Origin: a virus
Reading direction: 5' to 3' (one strand)
DNA length: 64,000 bases
IMG/VR virus record: IMGVR_UViG_3300013006_000020
Location: 1 to 64,000 of that record
Shown here: positions 1-49,560 of the stretch, one piece after another
How the letters are laid out: each line of letters starts with the position of its first letter
How positions within the stretch are numbered: position 1 is the first letter of the stretch
The notes under the pieces: model-generated
The model's database searches: none
Seen by the model: the letters and a program-made list of their open reading frames with translations, nothing else
Told to the model about the DNA's origin: nothing
Made by a program: the position numbers and the translations under genes

Positions 1-251
1 CCCGTGAACGGCTCCACCCTCACACAGGACGGCATGTTCTCGAGCATGGTCAGCAACTTCGTCAGCCCGCCCGTGGTCAGGAACTCCGGCACCTCATCCG
101 CCGAAGGCTGCACGTACGTCAGATCCTTCGACACCGTATAGAACACCTGACGCGGCCCCATCACCATCACCTTGCAGGCATTCCAGGACGGAACAACCCG
201 CACACTCCAACCGTTGACCCAAGAGAACGTCGTCTCATTGCTGATGTTCAT
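1..251 (-). CDS. hypothetical protein, truncated by window edge (MNISNETTFSWVNGWSVRVV...)
   Basis: Read manually: ATG at 251 preceded by AGAAAGGTTGG, frame open to base 1, strong G/C third-position bias; absent from ORF track because no stop in window. Confidence 0.7.
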   Translation of the reverse strand, partial: MNISNETTFSWVNGWSVRVVPSWNACKVMVMGPRQVFYTVSKDLTYVQPSADEVPEFLTTGGLTKLLTMLENMPSCVRVEPFT

Positions 252-289
252 GACCGTAATCCAACCTTTCTTCTATCAAGTAACAAGTA

Positions 290-1460
290 ACATGAGGACT
301 TTGAAACCGCACGCTGCGGTCCCATAAGTGAATGCCCACCACAACCCTTCCGGGCTGGGCGGGACTGTGTGCCTGGACGGGGTTGACCGTCGCAGGACTT
401 GGCGCCTTCCAGGCGTGAACCCCACGCACCACGTTTCCGCGATGCGTGAGGGGGAGAACCGGGCGTGATAGCACGCTAGCCCGGTCCATCTGCAGCCATG
501 CGTGCGGCTGCGTGTTGCTGTTGTTGTTGACTCGGCTACTGCAGTAGAATCGTCCGCTTACCCCACTACTGTGTAGCCTACAGATACCGCCGTGTCATGC
601 GTGGCTGGTTGCTAGGCAACCACGCGTGATCGACTTCCTGGTGCGCATGCCGCGCGTATGCAACCCCGTAGCCGTTGGCTACCGGACATAGCGCACCGTT
701 GTCATCAGCCCTGGGGCTGACCGTCCAGCGGAGTTACCCGCTGTATTGAATCTAGGTCGTTGGCATCATCGACCGTAGCGTAACCTTGCTGACGTACTTA
801 TCAGGGTTGTCATGTACCCCGGCCTGTGGCGAACCCGCTCATGGGGAACTTCGCAGTCGCTGCATAGTTACCAAGCCGCCTGCCACGCCTGGATCCACGC
901 CGAAGCGCAGAGCCGAACGCGACCACGTACTACTACGGTAGGACTATCGCGCACCTGTCTGCCATGCAGAGGAGCAACGCGATAGCCGCCATACGGTATC
1001 TGTCGGTGGATAGCCTATAGTACCTTTCGACCGTTGACGAGCATGGCCTGGCGCTACTCGCTGTGTCGATATGGGTACTCTGATCCTAGCGCGGTCTAGC
1101 CTCCACAGGGTAGCCGCCCCGCTCCACTGTCGCATAGTGGTAGCGGACTACGAATGGTTTCGGTGCCGTGTTGGATCGGTACTTGCGTACCTTGCACCTA
1201 CCTTCACGCTCCCGCGTGAATGTCCCACCCATTCGCATCTAGGGTTCCACGGCTTCCGCGTTTCTTTCGCCTATGTCTAGGCAGCGGATCCCAGGCTAGT
1301 TCCTCTGTGCCCAGGGCGATATCGGTCTATGGCTGCCATGTTTCAGGCAACTAGTTCCGTATCACACCCTGCGGTGCGGATACTATAACCTCGTGGTTCT
1401 ATGTTCGTCCGGCTTTACGGCTAATAATATCGAACCGTCGCGTTTCCGCGGCGGTCGATT
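290..1460 (-). ncRNA. candidate long structured non-coding region/RNA
   Basis: No convincing ORF; many stem-loops with GAAA and UUCG tetraloops and G-U wobbles on the minus strand (1429-1459, 896-909, 726-743, 705-720, 606-622, 420-452). Confidence 0.4.
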
Positions 1461-1465
1461 GTGGG

Positions 1466-1936
1466 TTACTTACCCTTCGGTGCGGAGTCCGCAGCGATCG
1501 CTGCGCGGATGGTACGTTCGGTCTGCGCGGACGTTTCGGGCGCGAAGACCATAGCGATCACGGATTCGAGCGTGATAGCCGCTCCGCTAGCCGTGTTCCA
1601 CACGGGACGCGAACGGTCTAGCGTAGCGACCACGCGCACTAGGGATGCCGCCCATGCTTCGGATTCCGCGAGGCGGGCTTCCGCCGCGAGTAGATCGGAT
1701 TCCGCCGCGTGACCGCGCACGAAATCCGCCGCTACGCGGCGCAGTCGATTCGCGGCAATATGCGGAACGCGACCGCTAGCCTTACGCTCAATCCATTCCG
1801 CCGCGACCGCCTTACCGAACGTACCGATGGCATTCCGCGCCTTATCGACCGTCCACGCCGTAGCCGCGTTCACGCGCGCCGTATGCATGAGGATAACGGA
1901 CGGGAGGGCAAGAACGCTGGTGGAAACCTGGGTCAT
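1466..1936 (-). CDS. hypothetical Ala-rich helical protein (MTQVSTSV...)
   Basis: CAGGAG RBS-like site upstream of ATG at 1936; start moved from 1999. Confidence 0.65.
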   Translation of the reverse strand: MTQVSTSVLALPSVILMHTARVNAATAWTVDKARNAIGTFGKAVAAEWIERKASGRVPHIAANRLRRVAADFVRGHAAESDLLAAEARLAESEAWAASLVRVVATLDRSRPVWNTASGAAITLESVIAMVFAPETSAQTERTIRAAIAADSAPKGK

Positions 1937-2115
1937 GACATAACTCCTGGCGCTGCGCGCCGTAGGTGGGTGATTTGTCCCGCCACACGGCGGGAACACC
2001 TATGGGGGCGCCGGAGGGCGGGGGAGTCCACCCAATTTCACAGCTCAAAAAATCAATATGAGGACTTATAACACGAGCGTATCGCTATCGAAAAGACGAA
2101 GGCGCCACTTCTAAA

Positions 2116-3698: not shown

Positions 3699-4523
3699 TT
3701 ATACCTCAATACCCATTGATCGTAGCTCTTCTTTGGTTGGCGGTTTCTGACCAAGAAGAACAAAACCAGCTATAAGAATAGCTAAAATAGGACCGGTAAC
3801 AGGTGCGCTAGTTCCGCCACTAGCGATGGTTATGCCTAGCGCTGCAAGCATCGCTATAATGAGCGCGCCTCGCAAATCAACCGATGCAAGTCCCTGTGAA
3901 AGAACAGCAGATCCAGCTTGTAACACAGACGAAACCTTCTCAAATTCAGCCATTATTACCGTAACTAGTGTTGCTGCTTCTTCTTCAGTCATTTGGGCTA
4001 TTGTTGAACAAAAAGCGTTTGTGTTGCTTCGTCCGCCCATTAGCAGATCGCTTAAAAATTGACTAAATTGTGGACTATTAAATACAGAACGATTAAATGA
4101 ATAAAATGTTTCACCTAAAATAAAACCAAGCTTGCCAATAATTTGTTGAACTAATATTTGAACGAGTGCTGGGTTTGCTAAAAACTGGTTAGCTACGCCT
4201 ATCTGCAAAAGTGTGTCAATTATGCTTTTTATAAAAGCGCACAGCATCTTAAAGAAATCAAGCCAACTCGCTACAGATCCAGCTCTAATCATTGATATTG
4301 CAAGTTCGCCTAGTTTGGTTACTATCATACCAATAACAACAACAGACGTTATTGCACCGCCACCAGCAGTAAAGCATGAATTTACTGAAGTCAATAATTC
4401 TTTAATTGTTTTTGCTAGGTTAAGTTCAGGACATTGGGCCTTTTCTTTTATGCCCTCATTTTCAACAGTTAAAAGCTCAACCTGTCTATTCATTGCCTTG
4501 ATAAATAATTCGTATCTATTCAC
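3699..4523 (-). CDS. hypothetical membrane-interacting protein with C-terminal Gly/Ala hydrophobic hairpin
   Basis: ALIIAMLAALGITIASGGTSAPVTGPILAILIAGFVLLG; GTGTAT 8 nt before GTG start. Confidence 0.7.
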   Translation of the reverse strand: MNRYELFIKAMNRQVELLTVENEGIKEKAQCPELNLAKTIKELLTSVNSCFTAGGGAITSVVVIGMIVTKLGELAISMIRAGSVASWLDFFKMLCAFIKSIIDTLLQIGVANQFLANPALVQILVQQIIGKLGFILGETFYSFNRSVFNSPQFSQFLSDLLMGGRSNTNAFCSTIAQMTEEEAATLVTVIMAEFEKVSSVLQAGSAVLSQGLASVDLRGALIIAMLAALGITIASGGTSAPVTGPILAILIAGFVLLGQKPPTKEELRSMGIEV

Positions 4524-4531
4524 ACATTAAA

Positions 4532-4564
4532 ATACACTCAAAGCAAAACATATGATAAGTGTAT
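4532..4564. promoter_or_regulatory. back-to-back GTGTAT promoter-like motifs for divergent genes
   Basis: ATACAC at 4532-4537 and GTGTAT at 4559-4564 between divergent ORFs. Confidence 0.6.
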
Positions 4565-4576
4565 CTATTAAAGAAT

Positions 4577-5266
4577 ATGAACAGTCTCAAAGCTAAAATA
4601 GAAGTTTTAAGAGTTGCTGTGAGTGCAGCACCACCACCATCAACACCTGTTAGATGTAAAGATATAGTAGCAAAATGGGCAAATATAAGAGCAAAAATAA
4701 ATCAGGCTTACGAGGCTGGTGTAAGCCAAGTTAATGGTTTAACTTTTAACACTCTTGGTAATGTTTGGACTTTTGAGACGTGGAATGATCAAAACGGAAA
4801 TCCCTTTCCACCAGAGCTTTTTAAGTTTGATCTTTCAAATCCTTATACCCCATCAAACAACTACCCGCCAGCTGCTGCAGCCGTACAGGTTGCTCCACAA
4901 ATTGGTCCAGCTTTAGAAAATGAAGCTAATGTTGCAAAAGAAAAACTATTACAGTGCATTAGAGAGATGCGAAAATGCGCAATTACACGGGGTTATAAAG
5001 ACCAAAGAAGTGGAAAATATATTCGTGGAAAATGGGATATGCTTTACGCGGCAGCTGTTGGTGAAGCAATAGAATTGGCACGAAAAGCGTGCGAGCCTTA
5101 CGCCTCCGCTGGTGGAATGAGTAGACCTACTACATCTCAAAAGAGGGATTTTTTCAAAGCTCAAATGACATCTATTTTAGACGGAGTAAGATCAGCTCTT
5201 GGGCCACCGTGTAAGCCATGTATTAAAACTCCAGCACCAGCACAAACAGCTCCAGCAACACCATAA
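4577..5266 (+). CDS. leader-bearing Cys-containing hypothetical protein
   Basis: Start moved to ATG 4577 (the track's GTG is the promoter motif); MNSLKAKIEVLRVAVSAA leader, Pro linker, C-terminal PPCKPC. Confidence 0.75.
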   Translation: MNSLKAKIEVLRVAVSAAPPPSTPVRCKDIVAKWANIRAKINQAYEAGVSQVNGLTFNTLGNVWTFETWNDQNGNPFPPELFKFDLSNPYTPSNNYPPAAAAVQVAPQIGPALENEANVAKEKLLQCIREMRKCAITRGYKDQRSGKYIRGKWDMLYAAAVGEAIELARKACEPYASAGGMSRPTTSQKRDFFKAQMTSILDGVRSALGPPCKPCIKTPAPAQTAPATP

Positions 5267-5287
5267 AATAATAGCCTAGGAATAATA

Positions 5288-5917
5288 ATGAACCCTATTG
5301 ATAAATTAAAATTTGTATTAGCAAAAGAGCCAACAGACTGCACTAAGATAACCGCTAAATATGCAAAAAAAATAGCAGCTGCTAATTCTTGCAAAACGGC
5401 TGGATTTAGAGCGGCAGATAATATTACTTGGATAAATAACAATAGACCTGATGATGGAATGACTAATTTTAGTTGGACCTGGGAGCGATGTGCTCCAGAA
5501 GGAGAGACTTCTTTTTTTCCTGAGGGTAATAAAAATCCTTTAAGGGGTGGCGCTAGTAGCCCAAACCAAGACGGTGGTGGTGGATCTATGAGACCGCCAC
5601 GTGGTCGTGGTGCTGTTATGCCAGCAGTTTTGACCCCGGGCTTAATGGATCCTTCAATGGGGCCTCCATCAAATCAAGATCGTCTTGATGCACGGCAAAG
5701 TGAAGAAAAATGCAAAATTTTGCTAAAGCACAACCAGATTCTTTATTCCCTAGCTGTAGAAAAAGAAAATGAACTTTACGCTGGCGGTTGCTCTCCGTAT
5801 CAAACAAATGTCGGCACAAGAAAAGAGTTGTTGGAGAAGAAAAAGGCGGACCTTGAAGCAAAATTTCTTAAAAACCAATCTGTAATAAATGGAAAAAAAC
5901 CATGCAAAAAAACTTAA
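5288..5917 (+). CDS. leader-bearing Cys-containing hypothetical protein
   Basis: MNPIDKLKFVLA leader-like start; AGGA upstream; 209 aa. Confidence 0.75.
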   Translation: MNPIDKLKFVLAKEPTDCTKITAKYAKKIAAANSCKTAGFRAADNITWINNNRPDDGMTNFSWTWERCAPEGETSFFPEGNKNPLRGGASSPNQDGGGGSMRPPRGRGAVMPAVLTPGLMDPSMGPPSNQDRLDARQSEEKCKILLKHNQILYSLAVEKENELYAGGCSPYQTNVGTRKELLEKKKADLEAKFLKNQSVINGKKPCKKT

Positions 5918-6348
5918 TTATTGCAATTGCTAAGCTCGCAACAGCTGTAAGAGAAAATTACGCTGTGGTCCCTTGCACACTAATGAAAATTAGCCCCTCC
6001 AAAAGAGCATTACGCTGCAATTGGAAACCAACAGATATATCAAAGATTGCTTCTGATATAGCAACAAAGGCTAAAACTCAACAATTGTCTTCTGAGTGTG
6101 TTGAGCAAATAGTTCGATCATTTTCAGATACTTTTAATATGAAGTGTGGCAACATGGGAAAAGGTATGTACTCTGGCGCCTATCAGGCTCTTAGATCTGA
6201 TCTTATTAGACGTGGTATAATTAAAACAACAACCAAGACTAGCAAACCAGCACCAAAACCAAATTATAATAAACCATCGGTGCTTGTACCAGACTCGCCA
6301 AGACCATACGAGACAATACGAATGGCAAATGTTGACATAACTAAATAA
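5902..6348 (+). CDS. leader-bearing Cys-containing hypothetical protein
   Basis: MQKNLIIAIAKLATAVRE leader; overlaps upstream gene end. Confidence 0.75.
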   Translation: MQKNLIIAIAKLATAVRENYAVVPCTLMKISPSKRALRCNWKPTDISKIASDIATKAKTQQLSSECVEQIVRSFSDTFNMKCGNMGKGMYSGAYQALRSDLIRRGIIKTTTKTSKPAPKPNYNKPSVLVPDSPRPYETIRMANVDITK

Positions 6349-6380
6349 CAGGTGTATAATAAAAAAGGATATATAATTAT

Positions 6381-6710
6381 ATGTCGCTAGAAAATACTAT
6401 AAATCGTTTAACACAAGTAATTAAAGCGGCTAATAGTCGTATGTCAGCGCCAACTAGTCCTTGGTTACCTGGCGACGACCAATTTCCTCGCGATAACAGC
6501 GGAACTTCCAAATGCGCGGGTGTAAGAGCACAAATTACTAGTAATCCTAATATAAGAATATTGGGCTGTCTTGAAGAGACTGGTCGCACTCCCGGTTGCC
6601 AATGCACTACTTATCAAAGAGCCGCTCCTGGTGGCGCTATTTCTACAAGCGGACCAGTAGCAGTTCCATGTAGATGGAGTGAATGCATAACACAGCCTGT
6701 TATGTTTTAA
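6381..6710 (+). CDS. MSLE-leader small Cys-rich protein 1
   Basis: MSLENTINRLTQVIKAA; 6 Cys incl. CQC; GTGTAT at 6352. Confidence 0.8.
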   Translation: MSLENTINRLTQVIKAANSRMSAPTSPWLPGDDQFPRDNSGTSKCAGVRAQITSNPNIRILGCLEETGRTPGCQCTTYQRAAPGGAISTSGPVAVPCRWSECITQPVMF

Positions 6711-6740
6711 TAATTAGTGTATAAAAAATAAGGAATAACC

Positions 6741-7010
6741 ATGTCACTAGAAAAATCAATTCAAAAACTTACAAATGCAATTACTGCTGCAAAAATGGCC
6801 CCATCTGTAATGACAGATCCATCTATAGAGCCAATACGAAATCCACCTTTAAAAGTAGTCTGCAAAACGGAATGGGAAGGTATGTGGCCAAACGTCACAG
6901 CAAAATGCGTTTGCAGATTTGGCAAGGATTGCATTGTGGAATCTATGTCAGGACCATGCCTAATAGAAAATTTCAGAACAAATGTCCCCATGGGAACTCC
7001 ATGTCAATAA
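6741..7010 (+). CDS. MSLE-leader small Cys-rich protein 2
   Basis: MSLEKSIQKLTNAITAA; 6 Cys incl. CVC and GPC; GTGTAT at 6717, AAGGA RBS. Confidence 0.8.
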   Translation: MSLEKSIQKLTNAITAAKMAPSVMTDPSIEPIRNPPLKVVCKTEWEGMWPNVTAKCVCRFGKDCIVESMSGPCLIENFRTNVPMGTPCQ

Positions 7011-7036
7011 TAATGTAATTAGAAATATTTTAAAAC

Positions 7037-7065
7037 AGCCCTCCTTAACAGGGGGGTTATTTTTT
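7037..7065 (+). terminator. intrinsic terminator, repeat copy 1
   Basis: AGCCCTCCT-TAAC-AGGGGGGTT stem-loop followed by T-run. Confidence 0.8.
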
Positions 7066-7144
7066 GTGTATAATAAATAAGAAAAAACCCATTATGTCTT
7101 TAGAAAAATCAATTCAAAAACTAACTCAAGTAATTCAAGCGGCT
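7037..7144 (+). repeat. terminator-promoter-leader cassette repeat, copy 1
   Basis: Near-identical to 7575-7682; partial copies at 7917-7977 and 8417-8451. Confidence 0.9.
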
Positions 7145-7549
7145 AAGCAGTTGGGATGCGTTGGTCGTGAGCGTTGCACAACAATGCCAAGAGGAGGTCA
7201 AATAGTTTGTGAGTGCCAAGAACTTAACGCAGACTGCAGTGTTAAGACCAATGGGCGAGTAACAATCACCCCAGGCGAATGCGCAACACAAGGTGACCGT
7301 CCGATGCAAACTCCACGAGTTCCAGTAGCTCCACGGGGTCCAGCAGAGACTGTCGGTCCACCAGCTCCAACTGAAGATTATCCACAGTTTTCGACTTGCT
7401 GGTGGGCGCGCCAAAGGATGATAGAAAATCCAAATTCTATGTCGGATGTCTGTTTTGATGCACGTACACCTGTTCCACATACAAGAATTGAGTTCTATAG
7501 AGATACCCCTGGTGGCCCAATCAAGACCCGGTCAAGCCGGTCGGACTAA
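7094..7549 (+). CDS. MSLE-leader Cys-rich protein 3 (modules A+B)
   Basis: Start moved to ATG 7094; MSLEKSIQKLTQVIQAA; paralogue of 7927-8391. Confidence 0.85.
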   Translation: MSLEKSIQKLTQVIQAAKQLGCVGRERCTTMPRGGQIVCECQELNADCSVKTNGRVTITPGECATQGDRPMQTPRVPVAPRGPAETVGPPAPTEDYPQFSTCWWARQRMIENPNSMSDVCFDARTPVPHTRIEFYRDTPGGPIKTRSSRSD

Positions 7550-7570
7550 CATCACTAGAAAAAGCAATTA

Positions 7571-7603
7571 AAATAGCCCTCCTTAACAGGGGGGTTATTT
7601 TTT
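7571..7603 (+). terminator. intrinsic terminator, repeat copy 2
   Basis: AAATAGCCCTCCT-TAAC-AGGGGGGTTATTT plus T-run. Confidence 0.8.
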
Positions 7604-7682
7604 GTGTATAATAAATAAGAAGAAACCCATTATGTCGTTAGAAAAATCAATTCAAAAATTAACTCAAGTAATTCAAGCGGCT
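7575..7682 (+). repeat. terminator-promoter-leader cassette repeat, copy 2
   Basis: Near-identical to 7037-7144. Confidence 0.9.
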
Positions 7683-7916
7683 CAGCTAGGAAGCCAAGAA
7701 CCTACGCAAAATATTAAAAGGCGTGGTGATATGCTGTATGACGATATTAGAGATCTTCCAAAAAATAGATTTGGTCAATCTAGTAAGGATTGCTACAATG
7801 CGCTCAAATATCTAGAACAAGATCCATTTGCGTTGGAGAGCTGCTGTACTGATTCAGAGTTACCTGTTTGCTACTATAGAAATGAAAGGGATGGCGAAAT
7901 TTTTGTTCGTCACTAA
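7632..7916 (+). CDS. MSLE-leader Cys-rich protein 4 (module B only)
   Basis: Start moved to ATG 7632; DCYNAL...ESCC...CYYRN matches the C-half of 7927-8391. Confidence 0.85.
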   Translation: MSLEKSIQKLTQVIQAAQLGSQEPTQNIKRRGDMLYDDIRDLPKNRFGQSSKDCYNALKYLEQDPFALESCCTDSELPVCYYRNERDGEIFVRH

Positions 7917-7926
7917 AAAACCCATT

Positions 7927-8391
7927 ATGTCTTTAGAAAAATCAATTCAAAAGTTAACCCAGGTAATTCAAGCGGCTCAGCTATACTCAGCACAGGCAAT
8001 AGTTGGTGGCCCCTATGCTAACAGTAGTGAGCGTTGCACAACAGAAACTAGAGGAGGCCAAAAAATGTGTGTGTGCGTGACAATTGGCGCAGACGGCCAG
8101 GTTATACTCAATGGACCAATAACAACCACCCCAGGCCCTTGTAAACCTCGTATACGACAAGTTCACGACCGAGATCCAGATTTTGTCGGCCCACCAACGC
8201 CACTTCCACCACTTCCACCAGAGCCTGTAGATGGATGGGATTGCTATTGGGCGCTCAAAGCTATGACAGACGATACAACAAAAATGGAGTCCTGCTGTTC
8301 TTTGAGACCTCCTGAAATGACAAGAATTTGCTACTATAGAAATACCCCTGGTGGCCCAATACAGAACCGGCCGGCAAACCCGGGAGGATAA
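7927..8391 (+). CDS. MSLE-leader Cys-rich protein 5 (modules A+B)
   Basis: Start moved to ATG 7927; same leader; ERCTT..RGGQ..CxC and DCYWAL..ESCC..CYYRNTPGGPI. Confidence 0.85.
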   Translation: MSLEKSIQKLTQVIQAAQLYSAQAIVGGPYANSSERCTTETRGGQKMCVCVTIGADGQVILNGPITTTPGPCKPRIRQVHDRDPDFVGPPTPLPPLPPEPVDGWDCYWALKAMTDDTTKMESCCSLRPPEMTRICYYRNTPGGPIQNRPANPGG

Positions 8392-8413
8392 CTTTACTAT
8401 AAAAACCAATTAA

Positions 8414-8445
8414 AATAGCCCTCCTTAACAGGAGGGTTATTCTTT
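8414..8445 (+). terminator. intrinsic terminator, repeat copy 3
   Basis: AATAGCCCTCCT-TAAC-AGGAGGGTTATT; the G-to-A change converts a G-U pair to A-U. Confidence 0.75.
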
Positions 8446-8458
8446 GTGTATTAAAAAT

Positions 8459-9304
8459 ATGGATTTTTCCGCTATTAATAAACTTAATATTCTGCTTGGT
8501 ATCGCAAAGCCAGAACCAACAGTTTTTACACCATCGCCAGCCGAGCCAGCAGCAAAACCACCGAAAAAACCAAAGCCTGCACCTATTCCTTGTTTTAAGC
8601 TTAATGCATACTGGAAAAGCCTAATTGGTTTTTGGGAGGGCTATAGGCCCTATAGATATAGAGATAGCGAAGGCTATTGGACAGTAGGAGTTGGAACACT
8701 AATTGATAAAAGAAAAGTTTCAATTTCAAGAATTCAATCAAGGCTTGGTGGATATTTTACATCAGTAATGGATGGTATAAACTCCGACACTGATCCAATA
8801 ATATTTTCTGCAGGCTCTAGAAATGGAGATAGTCCAATGCCAGGAACATCTCAAGCTCCAGTATCTATTGATACTGCTTGGCAGTGGGCGGATGTAGATC
8901 TACAAAACGCATATAAGGTTATATTTAACCTTTTAGGTCCAGAAGCATGGTCAAGATTATCGTATCCAGTACAATGTGTTTTGGTTTCGCTAAGCTATCA
9001 AGCAGATATAAGAAACTTTGTTTTATTAATAGCAGCCTTAAAACAACAGCCACCAGACTATGTAGAAGCGGCAAACCAAATGAAAAGATCAACTTGGTAT
9101 AGTCAAACACAAAGTGACAGAAAAGAACCAATGATTGCGATAATGAAATCAGGAGGTTCGTATACACCAACAACGATTGGCACATTTACAGCATCAAATC
9201 CAGAAACAGCAAGAACAAATCCATGTAATTTAAATTCTTCAACAAATCCAGAAAGTTTACCAAATTGGCCATCTACACCTCAAGAAACATTGATCTTGGA
9301 TTAA
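8459..9304 (+). CDS. T4-type (GH24) lysozyme with leader-like N-terminus
   Basis: WEGYRPYRYRDSEGYWTVGVG (E-x8-D-x5-T triad), AANQMKRSTWYSQT..R C-terminal motif; start moved to 8459. Confidence 0.85.
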   Translation: MDFSAINKLNILLGIAKPEPTVFTPSPAEPAAKPPKKPKPAPIPCFKLNAYWKSLIGFWEGYRPYRYRDSEGYWTVGVGTLIDKRKVSISRIQSRLGGYFTSVMDGINSDTDPIIFSAGSRNGDSPMPGTSQAPVSIDTAWQWADVDLQNAYKVIFNLLGPEAWSRLSYPVQCVLVSLSYQADIRNFVLLIAALKQQPPDYVEAANQMKRSTWYSQTQSDRKEPMIAIMKSGGSYTPTTIGTFTASNPETARTNPCNLNSSTNPESLPNWPSTPQETLILD

Positions 9305-9311
9305 GTGCTAC

Positions 9312-9707
9312 TTAAATAGTTGGAAATTTTCTGCGTTGACTCTGGGTTGGATTATACGATGATTCCTTTGTTATTTTTGAGAATACTGTTTTAAATCTTT
9401 TAACTGTATTTTCAGGAACCGCAAATGGAGCTATATAAAATCCAAACTGATAGCACCCTGGATTGTCTTCTGCATCAATAGAGTATGTTCCAAAAAATCC
9501 AGCGTCTGTTATTCCAGTTAAAGTAATCTGCCAAGAGTATCCAGTCAAAACATCGCCGCCTAGCAAATAAGAAGCTTGAAGAACATTGTTTTGCGCATCG
9601 TAAATCATTACGGCTTGAGGTGGACAGCTTGAAAGTGGGGTTTGAAATCCCGAACCGTTTAATACTACGGAGCTTGTTGTTCGGTTACTTGTAGTAATTG
9701 TAGGCAT
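9312..9707 (-). CDS. hypothetical beta-rich (Ig/Fn3-like?) protein
   Basis: 131 aa, Thr/Ser/aromatic beta pattern, basic C-tail; adjacent to 9708-10196. Confidence 0.6.
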   Translation of the reverse strand: MPTITTSNRTTSSVVLNGSGFQTPLSSCPPQAVMIYDAQNNVLQASYLLGGDVLTGYSWQITLTGITDAGFFGTYSIDAEDNPGCYQFGFYIAPFAVPENTVKRFKTVFSKITKESSYNPTQSQRRKFPTI

Positions 9708-10196
9708 TTAAAATTTCGGCACTTCGTTTCTGGTTTTTTTTGATCTTTTTAAAGGGCCATTACTAGAAGATCTTGTTGTTTTAATTCCAAAGCCATAAAA
9801 TGCTGGTACGGTAAGAATATTAGAAAATGTCGTAACAAAACCATCTGGGTTTGTTACACTAACCCTATATTGACTGCTACCACTCGCCCCGTGCTTATGA
9901 GTATACACCCAGTAATTTTTTGTAATAAACGCGGGTTCTACACCAAACTGGCCTGCTTGAAATGAAAAAATTGACGTAAAAGTTGGTGCACCAGGTGCCT
10001 TGTAGGATAACTCATAAATTAACTGCTCTGCATTGCCACCACTTAAAGCCGATCCCATATAACACTCAAGTGTTGTTGATGACTCGTCTCTGCCGTAAGC
10101 AAAAAGAGTTATATCATTTGGCAGTTCTTGTGGCGGTGTATTCACTTTAAATCTGCGATTGTTGTATTGGTCGCAACTCGACCCTTCCTCTACCAC
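9708..10196 (-). CDS. hypothetical Fn3-like protein
   Basis: YELSYK...QYRVSVTNPDG..FSNILTV resembles Fn3 C-terminal strands. Confidence 0.55.
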   Translation of the reverse strand: MVEEGSSCDQYNNRRFKVNTPPQELPNDITLFAYGRDESSTTLECYMGSALSGGNAEQLIYELSYKAPGAPTFTSIFSFQAGQFGVEPAFITKNYWVYTHKHGASGSSQYRVSVTNPDGFVTTFSNILTVPAFYGFGIKTTRSSSNGPLKRSKKTRNEVPKF

Positions 10197-10350
10197 ACAT
10201 CTTTACAAGACCCATGCGCCTGCGCATTTCACGTATTGACTTTAGTGTTCTACCCAAAGTTGACGCTATTTCACAGTCTCTCATTTTTCCAGCTTCTAGC
10301 TTTAAAAAATTCTTATGTTCTTCGCTCCATCTCTCTTTTTTATCCTGCAT
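10147..10350 (-). CDS. small HTH/Myb-like DNA-binding protein
   Basis: WSEEHKNFLK...EIASTLGRTLKSIREMRRRMGL; AGGAG RBS and GTGTAT upstream. Confidence 0.75.
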   Translation of the reverse strand: MQDKKERWSEEHKNFLKLEAGKMRDCEIASTLGRTLKSIREMRRRMGLVKMCGRGRVELRPIQQSQI

Positions 10351-10368
10351 AATATTCTCCTGTAATTA

Positions 10369-10390
10369 ATACACCTTTCTAGTCTATAAT
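10369..10390. promoter_or_regulatory. divergent GTGTAT (minus) / CTATAAT (plus) promoter-like pair
   Basis: ATACAC 10369-10374; CTATAAT 10384-10390, 5 nt before GTG 10396. Confidence 0.55.
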
Positions 10391-10395
10391 AGAAC

Positions 10396-10992
10396 GTGAA
10401 AAGACCTCAGAAAGACACAGTTGCCATCTTTTTGAAAAAATTCTCAAAAACTTCTGAGTATAAAATCTCAAGAGAAGAGGTCTTGTCTCTTGTTGAAAAA
10501 ATAGCACAAACGCATATGACAAAAACATTTGCGTATATGACAGTAGAAGATATAGCATCCCAGACGCGCCTAATATGCATGCAACAGTTAAAATTTTACG
10601 AACCAGAAAAAGGCGCTGGGTGGGATGATATTAATTCGCTTGAAAGATGGCTCAATCGTGTTGTAAAAAATAGACTTAAAAATTTTTATAGAGACCATTG
10701 CGGTAGTCTTAATGAACAACACAAGAAAGCACGAGTCTCTTTAAGCGCCAAAGCAAGAAACACAAAAGAAGACGCTATTGCATATGAGCCAGCAACTGGC
10801 AAAAATGAAACGGAAAACTCCGTTGTCTTTGCTGAGCTAAAAGATTTTATGGAATCTCGTTTATCTGAAGAGGGACGAGAAATATATAGAGCATGCCTAT
10901 CTGAGGAGCCAGTAAACTCATACTATAAAAACAAACTCAGAATAGAAATATCGCAAATCATGCAGGAGTGGACACATGGCAAAGCGAATTGA
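10396..10992 (+). CDS. phage sigma-70-like factor
   Basis: EDIASQTRLICMQQLKFYEPEKG...LERWLNRVVKNRLKNFYRD matches sigma region 2 pattern. Confidence 0.7.
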   Translation: MKRPQKDTVAIFLKKFSKTSEYKISREEVLSLVEKIAQTHMTKTFAYMTVEDIASQTRLICMQQLKFYEPEKGAGWDDINSLERWLNRVVKNRLKNFYRDHCGSLNEQHKKARVSLSAKARNTKEDAIAYEPATGKNETENSVVFAELKDFMESRLSEEGREIYRACLSEEPVNSYYKNKLRIEISQIMQEWTHGKAN

Positions 10993-11818
10993 AGAAGCTG
11001 ATAAGGTTTATATAGAAAATAACTGTAAATATAAAACTGATGCCGAAATAGCCAAGCATATTGGCTGTTCTGTAAAAACAGTTGAGCGCTATAGAAAAAG
11101 CATTGGCATGATGAAAAACGCGACCAAAGATCCAGTTGTTATAGTTGAGGGTCGCAAAGAAAATTATAATAGAGACATATTTGACTTTCACGTTCGCTCT
11201 TTTGAAACAAGTCCGAGGGGCGGCAGAATTAAAAAACAGCTTCCGCCAGACGAATGGACTCTTTTTGCCGAAGAATGGGCAAATTATAAAATTCAGCTTG
11301 AAGATCTCACACACACAGAACAAAACACTGTTGAGCAGCTTATATTTTTAAAGCTAAGAATAGATAAAAATCAAAAAGATTATTACGAAGCCATGAGAAT
11401 ACGAGATTCTATAATGGCTGAAAATGAAATTGTTGATATTAAAGATCTTGATTTATCTGATCCAAAACAGGCAGAGCTTTATCAAAAGGTATTTAATTCT
11501 TCAATAAGGGCTACCGATCTTAACAAAGAGTATAAAGATTTACTTGAAAAATCTACAAAATTAAATGAAACACTAAACGCCACAAGACGGCAAAGAGAAG
11601 AAAAGGGTAAGGTTGGTGGAGATACGTTTTTTTCTCTTTGCAAAAAGTTTGAATCAATGCAAACACGAGAAAAAGAAGGCCGTATGGCGGAACTGCTTCG
11701 TCTTTCAATGGAAAAGAAACAAGACAAAATGAGAAACGCAATAGAGTTTATGGATGGAGAACTGGCTCCACAACTAATGGACTCAGAAACAGTAGCAAAG
11801 GTTAGAGATCAACAATGA
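10976..11818 (+). CDS. HTH/coiled-coil protein, possible terminase small subunit
   Basis: N-terminal TDAEIAKHIGCSVKTVERYRK HTH; upstream of TerL. Confidence 0.5.
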   Translation: MAKRIEEADKVYIENNCKYKTDAEIAKHIGCSVKTVERYRKSIGMMKNATKDPVVIVEGRKENYNRDIFDFHVRSFETSPRGGRIKKQLPPDEWTLFAEEWANYKIQLEDLTHTEQNTVEQLIFLKLRIDKNQKDYYEAMRIRDSIMAENEIVDIKDLDLSDPKQAELYQKVFNSSIRATDLNKEYKDLLEKSTKLNETLNATRRQREEKGKVGGDTFFSLCKKFESMQTREKEGRMAELLRLSMEKKQDKMRNAIEFMDGELAPQLMDSETVAKVRDQQ

Positions 11819-12837
11819 AAACAGCAATAGTAACAGGTTGCCCTGGACAAGACGCATCATATCTATCAGAGCTTTTACTAGAAAAGGGATATAAGGTATA
11901 TGGAATATATCGCCGTAGCTCTACTGAAAAAAACGCATCAAATATGGCAGTTGCAGAAAGACATACAGACTTTCATCAGATCAATCTTGATATAACTGAC
12001 GCTTCTGGTATCTTCAGTATTATTTCCCATATTAGACCAGACGAATATTATAATCTTGCAGCAATGTCTCATGTTGGACAAAGCTTTAAAGAGCCAATTT
12101 CCTGTGCTTACGTAAATGGAACTGCGGTTACAATCGTTCTTGAGGCAATTGCAAAACATTCGCCACACACAAGATTTTATCAGGCTTCTACATCAGAGAT
12201 GTTTGGTGGAATAACGGAAAGCCAATCGGAAACAACTTCGTTTGTCCCGAGAAGTCCATATTCTGCCGCCAAGCTGTACGCTCATAATATGGTTGATATT
12301 TATAGAAAGTCATACGGGATATATGCTTGTTGTGGCATTCTATTTAATCATGAAAGCCCTAGACGTGGTTTTGATTTTGTGACTAGAAAAATAACTAGTG
12401 GAATAGCAAGATATAAACTTGGTCTTTCTAGTCATATAGAACTTGGAAACCTTGCAGCTAAAAGAGACTGGGGGCACGCTAAAGATTATGTTAGAGCCAT
12501 GTGGATGATGTTGCAGGCTCAAGAACCAAGCGATTATGTTGTTGCGACTGGTGAAACAATTTCAATTAAAGATGCTCTTGAATATGTTTGTGGTATTGCT
12601 GGGGTTGAGCCAAATGAAGCTTGTAAAATCAACCCAGCATTTAATCGACCACTAGAGGTAAATGTACTTTGTGGAGACCCATCAAAAATTAAAAGAGAAC
12701 TAGGATGGCAACCAGAATATACCTGGCAAGACTTGCTTTACGAGATGTATCAACACGATTACAGTATTAATTACTCTCAAAGTGTATTAAATAGTAGTGG
12801 CAAAGAAAAGGTTGAGGAAACCCAGGTTCAGGCGTAG
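11815..12837 (+). CDS. gmd: GDP-mannose 4,6-dehydratase
   Basis: TGCPGQDASYL, YNLAAMSHVGQSF, YQASTSEMFG, PRSPYSAAK, ILFNHESPRRG, RDWGHAKDYV. Confidence 0.95.
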   Translation: MKTAIVTGCPGQDASYLSELLLEKGYKVYGIYRRSSTEKNASNMAVAERHTDFHQINLDITDASGIFSIISHIRPDEYYNLAAMSHVGQSFKEPISCAYVNGTAVTIVLEAIAKHSPHTRFYQASTSEMFGGITESQSETTSFVPRSPYSAAKLYAHNMVDIYRKSYGIYACCGILFNHESPRRGFDFVTRKITSGIARYKLGLSSHIELGNLAAKRDWGHAKDYVRAMWMMLQAQEPSDYVVATGETISIKDALEYVCGIAGVEPNEACKINPAFNRPLEVNVLCGDPSKIKRELGWQPEYTWQDLLYEMYQHDYSINYSQSVLNSSGKEKVEETQVQA

Positions 12838-19038: not shown

Positions 19039-20973
19039 ATGAAGGTCTTTGAAGGCGAAAAAGAAATAGCGTCACTTGTAGCTAACAATAAAACAAAGTG
19101 CGATTCTACTTTGGTTACTGATATTTCAGTAAAAACAGATTCGCTAAATAATGTCTGCAAAGGGAATGCATGCGCAATTGCCTCTATTGCACCCAATGGA
19201 TACAAGCCAACGGATGATGTAACCACATTATCCTCAATACTTGTAAGTGATATATGGAATGCAAATGATGATGTCTTCACCTCAGAAGAAATTCTTTCTA
19301 GATACTCTACCGCAAAATTTAAACCAATAAACTGGATGCATAAGGGTTCTGAAGACACCGAAAATGAAAATATCGGCGTCATGCTTGAGACTACCCTAGT
19401 CGAGGGTGATGTCCCTGAAGTTAATATAATTAAAGCCGAAGACGCTTCTTGCAGCGATCCTAGAGCGTGCAGTGGAAAAATACACGTTAAACAAGACGGT
19501 ATTATTTGGTCTGGTTATTTCCCAACCTATGCACAAAAAATCAAAAAAGGAATTCAAGACGGTAAGCTTTTCGTTTCAATGGAATGTTTCTTTGAAGATT
19601 TTGGTTATGCCTTAAGAAATAGCGAAGATTCTGAAATTATATTCCTTGACAGAACTGATGCAAACTCAAAGATGTCAAAGGATCTTATTGCTTTTGGCGG
19701 CAAGGGTACAACTCAATATAAAGGTCAGAAATATCAAATTGGTAGATGGCTAAAGAAAATAACTTTTTCTGGTCAGGGCGTTGTATACGAGCCAGCGAAT
19801 AAGAAAAAGAACAAAATATACAGCATAATTTTTGCTCAAACAGCACAGGATCTTATGAATGCAAATTCCCCAATCCCAACTGTTCAGGAGCCTGGGGCTA
19901 TTCTAAATCCTGCAGAGATGATGGACGATACTTCAAATGTCTCTAGAACAGACACCCCACAAGATCTCAAAAATAAAAGAGAGATGCCAACAACATATAC
20001 CGCACCATCAGACGGTTTCATGTTCTTTACAGCAAAAGAAGCTGAATCTGTTGGTAAAATTAAGCTTGGGTGTACTGGATATCACCTGTACCAAGAAGAT
20101 AGACATGGTGATAAGCCACTACTTTATTCTGCGCTGATTGCAGACCCAACAGATCTTGAAAAGCAAATGGCAATACCACAGTATCGTCCATGCGAGGACG
20201 AGCGCGAGCTTCGTTTTGTTCTTAAAGAGCTTGGTATTTCACAAGAATCAGAAACCTCTTATTATATAGACAAACCAGAGGGTGATACAGATCCTGAGAT
20301 TGATCCTGCAACTGGTCTCCCAAGGAATCCAAGTTCTGGCGCCTTTGATCCCGCAACTGGTCTTCCTACAGGTCGTTCTGATGCACCAAATCAAGGGGGT
20401 GCAATTACAACTAGATCACAGATAACAAATGTTTCAAATATAAAAAAAGAAGTGTATAAAAATAAAGAGGAAAAAATGTCCGAACAAAACATCACAGAAA
20501 ACGCCCAAATCACCGAGCTTAAAGAGCAGCTCTCATACGCAGAACAAGCAATTGTTTTGGCTACTTCACATATTGAAAATATGAACTTCAAGCTGTCAAG
20601 AATTGATGAGCTAGAGAGTTTTAAGGCGCAAGCTGAGCAAATTATTGAAGAGGCATATGATAACAAGGTGGCACAAGACAGACTCACCGAAATGCGTGAA
20701 ATTGTGGGCGAAAGCTACACAGAAGAAGATCTACCAGAGCTAAAGGCTATGTCTGAAGCGTCTTTTGCCGAACTTCGTAAGGCTGTAAGCAAAGTAAGCT
20801 CGAAGATCGAAAAAGTAATTACAGAACAAGAAATAGTAGCAAGAGCTTCTCATGCAATCTCACAAGCAAAGAAGCAACAAGCTCAAACCCCAAATTTTGT
20901 TGTAGCGACAAAGCATGAGAACAAGGCCGACGTGGCGAAAAATCTCATAGCTCATGCGCTGCGAAGAAAATAA
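19039..20973 (+). CDS. prohead protease / scaffold fusion
   Basis: WNANDDVF, KPINWMH, LFVSMECFF, FSGQGVVYEPAN protease-like motifs; central DUF3721-like motif; coiled-coil C-terminus; between portal and capsid. Confidence 0.75.
   Translation: MKVFEGEKEIASLVANNKTKCDSTLVTDISVKTDSLNNVCKGNACAIASIAPNGYKPTDDVTTLSSILVSDIWNANDDVFTSEEILSRYSTAKFKPINWMHKGSEDTENENIGVMLETTLVEGDVPEVNIIKAEDASCSDPRACSGKIHVKQDGIIWSGYFPTYAQKIKKGIQDGKLFVSMECFFEDFGYALRNSEDSEIIFLDRTDANSKMSKDLIAFGGKGTTQYKGQKYQIGRWLKKITFSGQGVVYEPANKKKNKIYSIIFAQTAQDLMNANSPIPTVQEPGAILNPAEMMDDTSNVSRTDTPQDLKNKREMPTTYTAPSDGFMFFTAKEAESVGKIKLGCTGYHLYQEDRHGDKPLLYSALIADPTDLEKQMAIPQYRPCEDERELRFVLKELGISQESETSYYIDKPEGDTDPEIDPATGLPRNPSSGAFDPATGLPTGRSDAPNQGGAITTRSQITNVSNIKKEVYKNKEEKMSEQNITENAQITELKEQLSYAEQAIVLATSHIENMNFKLSRIDELESFKAQAEQIIEEAYDNKVAQDRLTEMREIVGESYTEEDLPELKAMSEASFAELRKAVSKVSSKIEKVITEQEIVARASHAISQAKKQQAQTPNFVVATKHENKADVAKNLIAHALRRK
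20476..20973 (+). CDS. nested in-frame scaffold protein (MSEQNITENAQ...)
   Basis: Internal GTGTAT at 20452 and AGAGG RBS before in-frame ATG 20476; coiled-coil 165 aa. Confidence 0.6.
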   Translation: MSEQNITENAQITELKEQLSYAEQAIVLATSHIENMNFKLSRIDELESFKAQAEQIIEEAYDNKVAQDRLTEMREIVGESYTEEDLPELKAMSEASFAELRKAVSKVSSKIEKVITEQEIVARASHAISQAKKQQAQTPNFVVATKHENKADVAKNLIAHALRRK

Positions 20974-35908: not shown

Positions 35909-35923
35909 GGTGTATAAAATAAT

Positions 35924-44469: not shown

Positions 44470-45063
44470 ATGCAAGAAAATAAATCAATAGCTAAATTAA
44501 CAGAACTTTTAGTCCAGCAAAAACTCATAGCAAATGATGCTCAACTAGGCGTAGTTATGCCAAATCCATATGACACTCCACCTATTACTATTCCAGAAAT
44601 GGCGCCATTGTTTCCAGGAGTAAAGCCATGCGGATCTACCGAGCAAAATGATTCGTGCGCTGCCTGCGATGAGCTTGCTAGAATAACCGCTCGTATCGAA
44701 AGGGTATCAGATCCTATTGTAATAGGAAGGCTAATAAAAGCAAAAAACGCAATTGGAGATATGTGCGCTCTTATTCAGGGGTGTTCAACACAGCAAAGCG
44801 GAAATATAGCACCATATCAAGACGGTACAGTGTGTTTGTGTTCTGCATTTATGCAATTAATTACATCCTTTATAGGCACCGTTAATGCCGCTTTAGTTCA
44901 ACCTCAATGGAGTGACAAATCAAGAAAGGCATTGACAAAAACGCTTAACTCTCAAAAAGATACATTCCGCAGGACTATAACTGAATGCTATAGACGTTAT
45001 AGAATCTCAGATAATAAAACATCTCAAAATGAGATTTTAAAAATAATTAATACACACTCATGA
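44470..45063 (+). CDS. leader-bearing Cys-rich hypothetical protein
   Basis: MQENKSIAKLTELL leader, Pro linker, 8 Cys. Confidence 0.75.
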   Translation: MQENKSIAKLTELLVQQKLIANDAQLGVVMPNPYDTPPITIPEMAPLFPGVKPCGSTEQNDSCAACDELARITARIERVSDPIVIGRLIKAKNAIGDMCALIQGCSTQQSGNIAPYQDGTVCLCSAFMQLITSFIGTVNAALVQPQWSDKSRKALTKTLNSQKDTFRRTITECYRRYRISDNKTSQNEILKIINTHS

Positions 45064-46897: not shown

Positions 46898-47572
46898 TTA
46901 TCTCCTGAGCATTGCGTGCTCTTTGTTTATGTCTTCTGAGCGAGAAACAACTGTTTTGTTTTGTCCATGTAAATAATAAGTAAAAAGCGGCATTGGTATT
47001 CTAAGACACATATAGTTTGCCGCAGATATTCGCATCCAGTAATCGTAGTCCTCAATTATTTTGATTGCTTCATTAAAGTAGCCAACTGTGTTTATAATGT
47101 CTCGTTTGATAAACGAATTTGTTGACACAATACAGTGCTGTTTAAGAATAGAAGGATCAAAATCCCTCTTTGCAGTATAAAACATTTTCTGTTCATTCAC
47201 CTCGATATAATCGGAATAGACCAATCCAACCTCTGAACCAAACTCTAAGTATTTTATGCTAAGCTCCGCTTTTTGTGGAGCATATTCATCATCAGCATCA
47301 AGAAAACCTATGTATTTTCCCGATGAGTTTACCATGCCAGCGTTTCTTGCGCTTGCAGTTCCTCCATTAGGTTTTTTGATAAGCTTGATATCGTGAGTCT
47401 TGTTTTTAGAGATTATATTCTGAGCGATAAGAAGCGAGTTGTCTTTACTGCCATCATCAACAATGATAATTTCATACTCTGATGGATTAAGAGTTTGCCT
47501 CATAGCACTGCTAACAGACCGCTCAAGAAAATGACCCTGGTTATAATTTGGTATGATTATAGAGCATTTCAT
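46898..47572 (-). CDS. glycosyltransferase family 2
   Basis: SIIIPNYN, IIVDDGSKD, NGGTASARNAG, FLDADD, EDYDYW. Confidence 0.95.
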   Translation of the reverse strand: MKCSIIIPNYNQGHFLERSVSSAMRQTLNPSEYEIIIVDDGSKDNSLLIAQNIISKNKTHDIKLIKKPNGGTASARNAGMVNSSGKYIGFLDADDEYAPQKAELSIKYLEFGSEVGLVYSDYIEVNEQKMFYTAKRDFDPSILKQHCIVSTNSFIKRDIINTVGYFNEAIKIIEDYDYWMRISAANYMCLRIPMPLFTYYLHGQNKTVVSRSEDINKEHAMLRR

Positions 47573-49558: not shown

Positions 49559-49560
49559 TT

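Follow-up and report, generated by a model that had tools for sequence, protein, structure and literature searches.

A variable array of leader-bearing, cysteine-rich genes in a lake phage outside the T4 group: a possible hyperplastic locus

The window analysed here covers the first 64 kb of a virus record (IMG/VR record IMGVR_UViG_3300013006_000020) that is 121,997 bp long and has direct repeats at its termini. It contains five tandem paralogous genes, g1 to g5, on the + strand within positions 6352-8459. All five open with the same 17-residue leader, and an expression cassette, a short 5' untranslated region (5'UTR) and the leader codons are the only DNA that the units share; most units are bracketed by cassettes. 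We consider it very probable that the array is shuffled through its cassettes and leaders and that the payloads behind the leaders evolve fast. The best overall explanation, to which we give slightly less than an even chance, is that this is a hyperplastic locus of shuffled, leader-tagged proteins in a lake phage outside the T4 group. Judged by its genes, the phage is not T4-like. No PHROG match to the T4 core families was seen among 46 open reading frames (ORFs) scanned, the terminase finds its best matches in Microcystis, Bacillus and Clostridium phage records at 25-28% identity, and there is a 1907-aa tape-measure-like gene. A blastn search with positions 4500-9400 returned no DNA match among 50,697 phage records.

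The array genes vary in size and in the modules that they carry. The first, g1 (6381-6710; 109 aa), joins the leader to a module B-like domain with 6 Cys and has orthologues in the related loci L027, L017, L026 and L015; g2 (6741-7010; 89 aa, 6 Cys) has the leader, a Pro-rich linker and a module A-like domain. Both g3 (7094-7549; 151 aa) and g5 (7927-8391; 154 aa) consist of leader, module A, Pro-rich linker and module B, with 8 Cys each, and g4 (7632-7916; 94 aa, 4 Cys) has the leader and module B only. Residues M1, S2, L3, E4, I7, L10, T11, I14, A16 and A17 of the leader are identical in all five, and alignment identity is lost right after the Ala-Ala codons, a sharp divergence that a preliminary description of this DNA had already pointed out. 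We gathered relatives through g5, through the conserved sigma-like gene 2 kb downstream and through a degenerate leader pattern. The window, 14 related loci and two protein searches together yielded 38 distinct leader-bearing proteins. All 38 agree at positions 1-4, 7, 10 and 11; 37 have I14, 34 have A16 and 34 have A17, and from residue 18 on conservation collapses. Behind this common leader the 38 proteins split into five payload clusters (BLASTP, E 1e-3) with 24, 8, 3, 2 and 1 members. Calling the payloads hypervariable was therefore an overstatement, since so many members reduce to five clusters of recurring modules. Nor are the payloads of the array unrelated to each other: positions 7164-7276 match 8024-8136 at 73% and 7481-7531 match 8320-8370 at 84% at the DNA level, and all five payloads are assembled from a few shared modules.

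A predicted structure of g5, which is only of moderate quality (mean pLDDT 64, pTM 0.35), shows the leader helix isolated at residues 4-22, with low confidence, followed by two small beta-rich modules with a disordered Pro-rich linker between them. Module A has three predicted strands; module B, the best-predicted part of the model, combines a helix with strands. The cysteine count is even (2, 4, 6 or 8) in each of the 18 aligned members. Two Cys columns of this alignment are both present in 11 members, both absent in seven and never discordant, and a second pair of columns is complete in three members, missing altogether in two and discordant in none, the rest being gapped. Because the counts are even and co-vary, we read them as disulfide pairs, and the payload cysteines probably form disulfide bonds. 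The payloads are 72-137 residues long. The family is rare and its members are without names: a collection of 5.8 billion proteins yielded 16 at E <= 0.01, and one of 1.84 billion yielded 10 cluster representatives at E <= 0.001, at least seven of them from the same phage family. Searches of Pfam and PHROG with g1-g5 and of NCBIfam with g5 only gave no family match, a Foldseek search of the PDB with the g5 model gave no match at E <= 0.001, and the best score of g5 in a protein atlas was 0.82, below the bar of 0.9 (to a quinohemoprotein amine dehydrogenase gamma and to a putative rSAM-modified peptide).

The repeated block of about 108 bp that drew attention to this locus is real. Positions 7030-7148 recur at 7568-7686 with 96% identity over 119 nt (E 1.2e-51). 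Two partial copies exist, one at 7915-7981 (93%) with the 5'UTR and leader part only and one at 8410-8459 (90%) with the hairpin and promoter part only, and diverged copies lie at 6714-6772 (83%) and 6352-6433 (73%). All six matches fall inside 6352-8459, and none was found elsewhere in the 121,997-bp record. Direct repeats of 71 nt, 89% identical (7547-7617 and 8389-8459), bracket positions 7618-8459 and hence g4 and g5. An 11-nt short repeat in the 5'UTR of g5 (7917-7927, +) has a second copy, identical at 10 of 11 positions, at 8402-8412 (+), and these two copies mark the left and right edges of an insertion or deletion of g5; the repeat has four matches in the window compared to 0.23 expected.

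Three hairpins with T-runs are predicted to act as terminators on the + strand, at 7030-7066 (-14.0 kcal/mol, z -3.15), 7568-7604 (-18.3 kcal/mol, z -5.21) and 8410-8446 (-17.6 kcal/mol, z -5.36), where z compares the folding energy with that of shuffled sequence. The loop of every hairpin contains a -35 box, 18 nt upstream of a -10 element; in the first hairpin it belongs to the promoter that follows. Immediately upstream of g1, g2 and g5 the sequence does not fold (z -0.24, -0.16 and +0.62), so terminators are predicted only after g2, g3 and g5. The motif GTGTATAAT occurs exactly at 6352, 7066 and 7604 and with one mismatch at 6717. Promoters of the sigma-70 type are predicted on the + strand for g1 (6332-6360; 12 of 12 consensus positions, spacer of 17 nt), g3 (7045-7074) and g4 (7583-7612), the last two with 11 of 12 positions and a spacer of 18 nt. 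In front of g2 there is a promoter-like -10 motif (6717-6725, +) with one mismatch to the 9-mer and a best -35 match that is weak (3/6), and a further promoter copy precedes the lysozyme-like gene to the right of the array (8425-8454, +; -35 match of 5/6, spacer of 18 nt), with the 9-mer 4 nt from the ATG. For g5, neither a promoter of its own nor an upstream terminator was found. The picture of a row of terminator-promoter-leader cassettes thus holds for three hairpins and four promoter copies, but g1 and g4 have no terminator behind them and g5 has neither element in front.

The promoter motif by itself is not special to the array. With at most one mismatch, GTGTATAAT has 24 hits in the window compared to 19.4 expected and is thus not enriched, and across the genome at least 14 genes, structural genes included, have a related site 4-20 nt in front of the start codon. 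We regard it as a genome-wide promoter-like motif. What sets the array promoters apart is the -35 box and not the 9-mer: a -35 match of at least 5/6 is present at four of the five promoter sites in the array region, at two of the 26 other GTGTAT-type sites of the genome, and at 1.8% of 20,000 random positions. As a separate observation, the 9-mer GTGTATA[AT][AT] ends 4-7 nt before an ATG at window positions 35910, 42920, 55185, 57157, 60578 and 3686 (-) and at genome position 101357 (-). With so short a distance, many mRNAs of this phage may be leaderless. Pfam hits to the mycobacteriophage families L5 gp82 and GP88, together with this spacing, hint weakly at an actinobacterial host.

The composition of the array differs between relatives. 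We defined a complete array as the leader genes between the conserved gene of the type found at 5902 and the right flank, and we found one to five leader genes across eight distinct complete arrangements: five in the window, three in L027, in L017/L045 and in L015, two in L021/L022 and in L026, and one in L018 and in L023/L025. The payload sets differ as well. A blastn comparison of positions 4400-10600 with seven relatives places the changes at 6812, 7010, 7617 and 8459. The window aligns collinearly with L027 and L017 as far as 6812, a point ~70 nt inside g2 that lies just beyond its leader; in both relatives the g2 payload has been swapped for an unrelated one, and collinearity is back at 7010, where the cassette starts. 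L027 is without 7618-8459, and thus without g4 and g5. In L017, g3 and g5 are absent and the orthologue of g4 directly follows the gene of the swapped g2 type. Contigs from public sequencing runs add further joints. One from run X3 joins 7603 to 8516. Three are found on a 33-kb contig from run X6: one connects 6812 with 7568 across 237 other letters; another connects 7916 with 8401, the two overlapping by 4 nt, and removes exactly g5 with the copies of the 11-nt repeat as edges; the third connects 8445 with 9316 across 1132 other letters. Parts of the stretch that are uncovered in X3 and X6 were counted as absent only where a contig joins across, and no habitat is named from runs X3-X17, which contain only small shares of the stretch. 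The edges of the insertions, deletions and replacements lie at 6812, 7010, 7603/7617, 7916, 8401 and 8445/8459, in a leader, a 5'UTR or a cassette. The array is therefore not invariant among relatives; as the preliminary description anticipated, payloads are gained, lost and swapped, with breakpoints in the shared head.

The payloads and the surrounding genes differ strongly in their rates of change. Nei-Gojobori counts, which are pairwise and come from few, non-independent sequences, show payloads that evolve fast or under relaxed constraint and give no formal proof of positive selection. Payload dN/dS ranges from 0.38 to 1.73 (0.39-1.73 for the g1 pairs), whereas three flanking genes (the sigma-like gene, the gene at 10976 and a sugar dehydratase) have values of 0.03-0.06 at dS 0.16-0.34 in the same three close relatives. 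Between g3 of the window and its L027 orthologue there are no synonymous and 11 non-synonymous differences in 128 payload codons, for which rough arithmetic, with about a quarter of the sites synonymous, gives a chance of about 0.04; g4 and its L017 counterpart differ by two synonymous and 10 non-synonymous changes in 77 payload codons. In orthologous pairs the payload dS is 0-0.1, below the genomic background, and within one gene the leader dS, at 0.2-0.7, exceeds that of the payload; in g4, five synonymous changes in 17 leader codons compare to two in 77 payload codons. This reveals that leaders and payloads moved between lineages independently and have different histories. The lysozyme-like gene shows a dS of only 0.03 between the window and L026, far below the background dS of more than 1 to that relative, and thus the whole neighbourhood exchanges DNA. 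The copies themselves are old. Even the closest paralogues, g3 and g5, are separated by a payload dS of 0.48 and dN of 0.63, and their DNA identity of 73-84% extends over parts only, which speaks against the gene accordion of the preliminary description. Homologous and short-homology recombination between the shared pieces would instead shuffle payloads within and between co-infecting relatives. A handle that spans terminator, promoter, 5'UTR and coding leader would ensure that every swap yields an expressed, correctly addressed protein, and this design would explain how phages can try out new small proteins cheaply.

One could assume that the head is selected only as nucleic acid, as promoter, translation-initiation region or gene-conversion tract, and that the peptide has no function. 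The 96% identity between 7030-7148 and 7568-7686 does span non-coding and coding sequence alike, and the different histories of leaders and payloads imply that conversion or exchange occurs. However, the leader codons differ almost solely synonymously: the 17 codons show two to six synonymous changes in 16 of 18 pairs, whereas non-synonymous changes number zero or one in 16 of the pairs and two or three in the other two. In addition, the seven residues that never vary among the 38 proteins are kept in contigs whose background dS reaches 1-2. With many synonymous and almost no amino acid changes, the leader peptide is itself selected; it is under strong purifying selection at the protein level, and we consider a purely nucleic-acid role very improbable. 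The comparison of leader and payload that had been suggested thus returns a constrained leader and fast payloads, and the head is a recombination handle, as proposed, but more than a handle made of DNA. Still less probable is that the array is an assembly artefact in which repeats caused reads from several strains to be mis-joined. In the lake-water runs X1 and X2 the five genes never occur together on one contig, and the contigs end in repeats, where assemblies break; the word depth of the g4 piece in X1 is also lower than elsewhere (7.15 compared to 11-15.1), though word depths in these runs are too crude for a claim about copy-number variation within the population. X1 and X2 belong to two studies, and one run may be the source sample. 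They contain 97% and 90% of the sampled words, and the array pieces 5800-7066, 7090-7604, 7592-7944 and 7923-9400 are present in both at 99-100% identity; one public-run contig bridges the junction between g4 and g5, and arrays of the same build with one to three genes are found on at least eight other contigs.

The sequence of the leader suggests what kind of function it may have. The helix is amphipathic: its hydrophobic residues lie on one face (3, 7, 10, 13/14 and 17), positions 4, 5 and 9 are charged, and it is too polar for a signal peptide, with no hydrophobic core. The invariant polar residues S2, E4 and T11 suggest a specific protein partner. On balance we lean towards a virion-sorting tag of one kind or another, and we favour it in view of similar helices on other proteins, described below, and of a putative prohead protease and scaffold. 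The protease and scaffold are found in one 644-aa protein (19039-20973, +), with a gp21/assemblin fold at residues ~57-275 and a long-helix scaffold. The model of residues 57-275 matches T4 gp21 (5jbl_B) with Z 8.8 and an rmsd of 3.8 A over 136 residues, and the next 24 rows of the fold search are herpesvirus proteases at Z 6.5-7.8. With Foldseek alone, the 644-aa protein reached E 0.027, and a search of the PDB by sequence gave only coiled-coil noise, so that the assignment as prohead protease is based on the fold. H101 and S180 are invariant in 36 homologues of a family that has at least 571 members and no Pfam model. The C-terminal 165 residues form long helices, and a promoter motif at 20452 with an in-frame ATG at 20476 makes a nested 165-aa scaffold possible. 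The boundary between leader and payload, Ala-Ala after a hydrophobic residue, presumably resembles the cut site of an assemblin-type protease. A complex prediction for the leader (residues 1-35) and the putative scaffold (480-644) scored 0.00; it was run with no controls and is uninformative either way.

If the leader is such a tag, it would load the array proteins and the lysozyme-like neighbour into the assembling virion through the protease-scaffold core, and disulfide-stabilised domains would be delivered with the DNA to act at the host envelope or against host defences. Of the possible destinations we favour the capsid interior first and a surface anchor second; the interior version, modelled on the internal proteins (Ip) of T4, is one that we hold only tentatively.

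Helices similar to the leader are not restricted to the array. Beyond the leader family this similarity was judged by eye. To the left, the same-strand cluster begins with a 229-aa, Cys-containing protein (4577-5266, +), whose N-terminal helix ends in Ala-Ala and is followed by a Pro-rich stretch; its gene has a dN/dS of 0.13-0.29 compared to relatives. The proteins of 209 aa (5288-5917, +) and 148 aa (5902-6348, +), the latter encoded by the conserved left flank of the array, have similar N-terminal helices. None of these three genes has a family in Pfam, PHROG or NCBIfam, and a single sub-threshold Pfam row for the gene at 5902 was discarded. The right flank is a 281-aa protein (8459-9304, +) with an N-terminal helix, a Pro-rich linker and a phage-lysozyme-like domain. 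Its Pfam match to Phage_lysozyme (PF00959) has E 3.9e-4 and, at 21.2 bits over 30 residues, is just under the cut-off of 22.3; the L018 orthologue reaches 23.3 bits, and PHROG returns endolysin at E 4.3e-7 as well as internal-virion-lysozyme-motif families. L017, L015 and the X6 contig lack the lysozyme-like gene and have in its place an unrelated opposite-strand gene of 363 aa (L017 6673-7764, -), which in L017 and X6 was found to encode a leader-like helix and is homologous (E 2e-17) to its positional counterpart in the distant relative L028. A role of this gene as a SleB/CwlJ-type wall hydrolase was suspected but is not supported: Pfam Hydrolase_2 appeared only at E 0.3 in a distant homologue, and a four-sequence profile found no PDB hit.

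At genome positions 78999-82918 (+; L011 15999-19918), five tightly packed genes encode proteins of 318, 329, 254, 269 and 119 aa with 6-14 Cys each, four of which share a Cys-rich C-terminal domain. In at least four, and possibly all five, a Pro-rich stretch follows an N-terminal helix that resembles those of the array. Searches of Pfam, PHROG and NCBIfam returned no family for this cluster, and a protein of the cluster had no usable match in the protein atlas. Four distant relatives have a leader-like helix on four to six Cys-rich proteins each, and in three of the four a DUF5856/Dps-like protein (PHROG 858) that lies among these genes has a leader-like N-terminal extension (L028 4307-4834, L030 5220-5780 and L032 2927-3415). 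A profile of 18 leaders from the distant relatives gives a single significant ORF in the genome, at 79954 (E 0.0014). A bolder reading, which we consider doubtful, is that in a lineage of ~120-kb lake phages not described before, a phage-wide N-terminal helix serves as an address that loads an exchangeable repertoire into the virion, made up of mini-proteins knotted by disulfides, a wall hydrolase and, among the distant relatives, a Dps-like protein, with the address DNA and the cassette as the swap site. The locus would then be a convergent counterpart, both coding and regulatory, of the T4 internal proteins and the PeSL cassettes discussed below, with a logic of conserved head and variable tail like that of conotoxins.

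Several observations weigh against a virion-sorted, shuffled repertoire. The same 18-leader profile ranks g2, the lysozyme-like gene and the genes at 5902 and 5288 only 11th, 14th, 17th and 21st of 879, with E of 2-10 (10, not significant, for the gene at 5288), and a profile of the 38 leaders that begin with MSLE brings no further N-terminus of the genome under E 0.4. Given these weak results, a single leader class for all 13-14 genes with such helices is not established. The location of the array proteins in the virion and the cleavage of the leader are predictions only. The near-consensus -35 and -10 elements look like early promoters, read by the host polymerase, a timing that would not be expected of head proteins. 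Proteins that are surface-exposed or exported are at least as likely as capsid contents to show paired cysteines and Pro-rich linkers, a payload dN/dS near 1 is also produced by relaxed constraint, and no contig of the public runs covers the array as a whole. As a side observation, the best N-terminus outside the family for the MSLE profile belongs to a 197-aa ORF at window positions 44470-45063 (+), at the non-significant E of 0.4.

These points lead to other possible functions of the leader. The helix might dock the proteins on the outside of the virion, on capsid or tail, with the Pro-rich linker holding the variable modules outward as adhesins or receptor-binding accessories and the paralogues competing for the same docking site. 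The even, co-varying cysteines would, as disulfides, indicate that the proteins work in an oxidising environment outside the cell; leader and modules are separated by extended Pro-rich linkers, the payloads change rapidly, like determinants of host range, the lysozyme-like protein with its similar helix might be a wall hydrolase attached to the tail, and the genome has many glycosyltransferases. However, a helix of 17 residues is very small for an anchor, the payloads have no fold or family link to fibre, decoration or adhesin domains (the Foldseek search described above included), and Dps-like proteins with a similar helix fit an interior location on the DNA side better. We consider surface display unlikely, and a role of the leader in export less likely still. 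In the latter case it would direct the proteins to the membrane or to an export route of the host in the infected cell, and the Cys-rich modules would work in the envelope or the medium, for instance in superinfection exclusion, envelope remodelling or lysis. Paired cysteines would be expected there, full sigma-70-type promoters suggest early expression, and a wall hydrolase needs access to the wall. The charges at positions 4, 5 and 9 and the missing hydrophobic core are nevertheless not those of a signal peptide, the invariance of S2, E4 and T11 in 38 of 38 proteins favours a protein partner over lipid binding, and among the ~140 ORFs of the 122-kb genome scanned against Pfam there is no peptidase-ABC exporter, Dsb-type oxidoreductase or other export gene. 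Equally improbable, in our view, is that the proteins stay unpackaged in the cytoplasm as early host-takeover or anti-defence proteins, with the leader as an interaction or oligomerisation helix and the cysteines binding metal. The early-type promoters agree with this explanation, and fast payloads and shuffling through cassettes are common features of loci for accessory and anti-defence genes (PMC2839356). Cysteines are, however, gained and lost strictly in twos, and members with two or six of them fit disulfides better than metal sites with four ligands; the lysozyme-like member, moreover, has no obvious role in the cytoplasm. Finally, a conserved leader that ends in two small residues and precedes variable, Cys-rich sequence recalls precursors of ribosomally synthesized and post-translationally modified peptides (RiPPs), in which a modifying enzyme or a leader-peptidase exporter would recognise the leader, and the weak leads from the protein atlas, at a score of 0.82 and thus under the bar, are Cys-crosslinked peptide families. 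Yet the payloads have 72-137 residues with predicted folded modules, leader-like helices also occur on proteins of 209-329 residues, and the ~140 phage ORFs, which cover phage genes only, include no radical-SAM, lanthipeptide-type or C39-peptidase/ABC gene. We regard a RiPP-type array as highly improbable.

Whatever the function, the locus is a natural data set of breakpoints, copy-number variants and paired-Cys covariation for the modular evolution of small, disulfide-rich viral proteins. As a virion-sorting tag, should it prove to be one, the leader would be compact, with 17 residues, and would come with a natural library of cargo, and the fast evolution of that cargo points to a direct host interface, either defence or envelope.

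Other features of the record touch the array less directly. An island of about 2 kb with ~60% G+C occupies window positions 1-2030 of a phage that otherwise has 39% G+C. No ORF of at least 80 aa is present at 300-1460 within it, the minus strand of 300-1000 folds with z -4.05 (none of 20 shuffles as good) and the plus strand with z -1.93, and Rfam gives no match even at E <= 1. G+C-rich stretches with partial DNA conservation are found in the same relative place in L018, L021, L026, L028 and L029, and the island may be a large structured RNA adjoining an HNH endonuclease gene (2116-2637, -). The DNA polymerase III alpha subunit is split in two genes (window 52980-54524, -, and genome 63790-65673, -), a finger/HhH/OB part and a PHP/NTPase part about 9 kb apart, with other genes between them, some on the other strand. 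Sugar-related genes are unusually many, with at least five glycosyltransferases, a GDP-mannose 4,6-dehydratase and an FkbM-type methyltransferase (window 46898-52331, -, and 11815-12837, +; genome 77388-78410, -, and 83379-84569, -). This set may glycosylate virion proteins or proteins with Pro/Ser/Thr-rich linkers.

Among known systems, the cassettes most resemble PeSL, the composite promoter/stem-loop cassettes of T4-type phages, which stand before small variable genes and mediate modular shuffling; in one subclass the stem-loop overlaps the -35 box (PMC2839356; PMC4122927 for the cassettes in general). PeSL match the locus in the composite of a strong sigma-70-like promoter with a stem-loop terminator, with the stem-loop over the -35 box as in that subclass, in its repetition through a variable region before small genes of unknown function, and in the ends of insertions, deletions and replacements between close relatives, which fall in the cassettes. 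The differences are that PeSL sit in hyperplastic regions of T4-like myoviruses, which this phage is not, that the block shared here runs on through the 5'UTR into 17 conserved, selected codons, and that PeSL genes are unrelated ORFans, whereas one modular protein family is present here. The promoters and terminators of our locus are predicted from sequence alone. With these qualifications, the locus extends the PeSL idea beyond T4-like phages.

The leader finds its closest parallel in the Ip proteins of T-even phages. Ip proteins are small and basic, unlike the Cys-paired payloads with Pro-rich linkers described here. Ip proteins share only an N-terminal leader of 10-19 residues, which takes them to the prohead core and is then cleaved off by gp21; they are encoded in variable loci and are highly diverse among related phages, and Ip1-3 each block a different GmrSD-type restriction enzyme (PMC9026906; PMC12373910). 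Here, too, a short leader (17 residues compared to 10-19 in T4) is the sole shared sequence in a variable locus with many variants, a prohead protease with the gp21 fold and a scaffold core are present by prediction, and anti-restriction roles like those reported for Ip proteins would fit the fast evolution of the payloads. In contrast, no PHROG or Pfam link connects the array genes to Ip families, and the phage lineage and host are different. If the leader does sort proteins into the virion, an uncultured lineage of freshwater phages would provide a second and independent case of the capsid-targeting principle of T4.

Outside the T4 group, a 30-residue N-terminal stretch of DarB from phage P1 can be sufficient to direct a protein into a capsid, and DarB is believed to enter the cell and act against restriction (PMC9024508). 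DarB is, however, a single, very large protein, with neither a tandem family nor a cassette structure. Gene accordions are reportedly known from poxvirus K3L work as the recent amplification of one gene. Segmental amplification is also described for T4 (PMC9391042). Our locus agrees in being a tandem accessory locus whose number of copies changes from one close relative to another; it is set apart by the age and divergence of its paralogous copies and by replacement and shuffling as the main process. Conotoxin superfamilies combine a conserved N-terminal trafficking part with rapidly diversifying, disulfide-rich payloads, and polymorphic toxins likewise have a conserved N-terminal trafficking part and gain diversity through recombination with cassettes. 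The evolutionary logic is the same here, but the organisms and trafficking machineries are unrelated and there is no homology, so that the likeness is one of analogy. In the literature searched, supplementary files being excluded from scope, we found no description of such a system outside T4-like phages. The locus works like a fusion of the PeSL and Ip ideas and is a member of neither.

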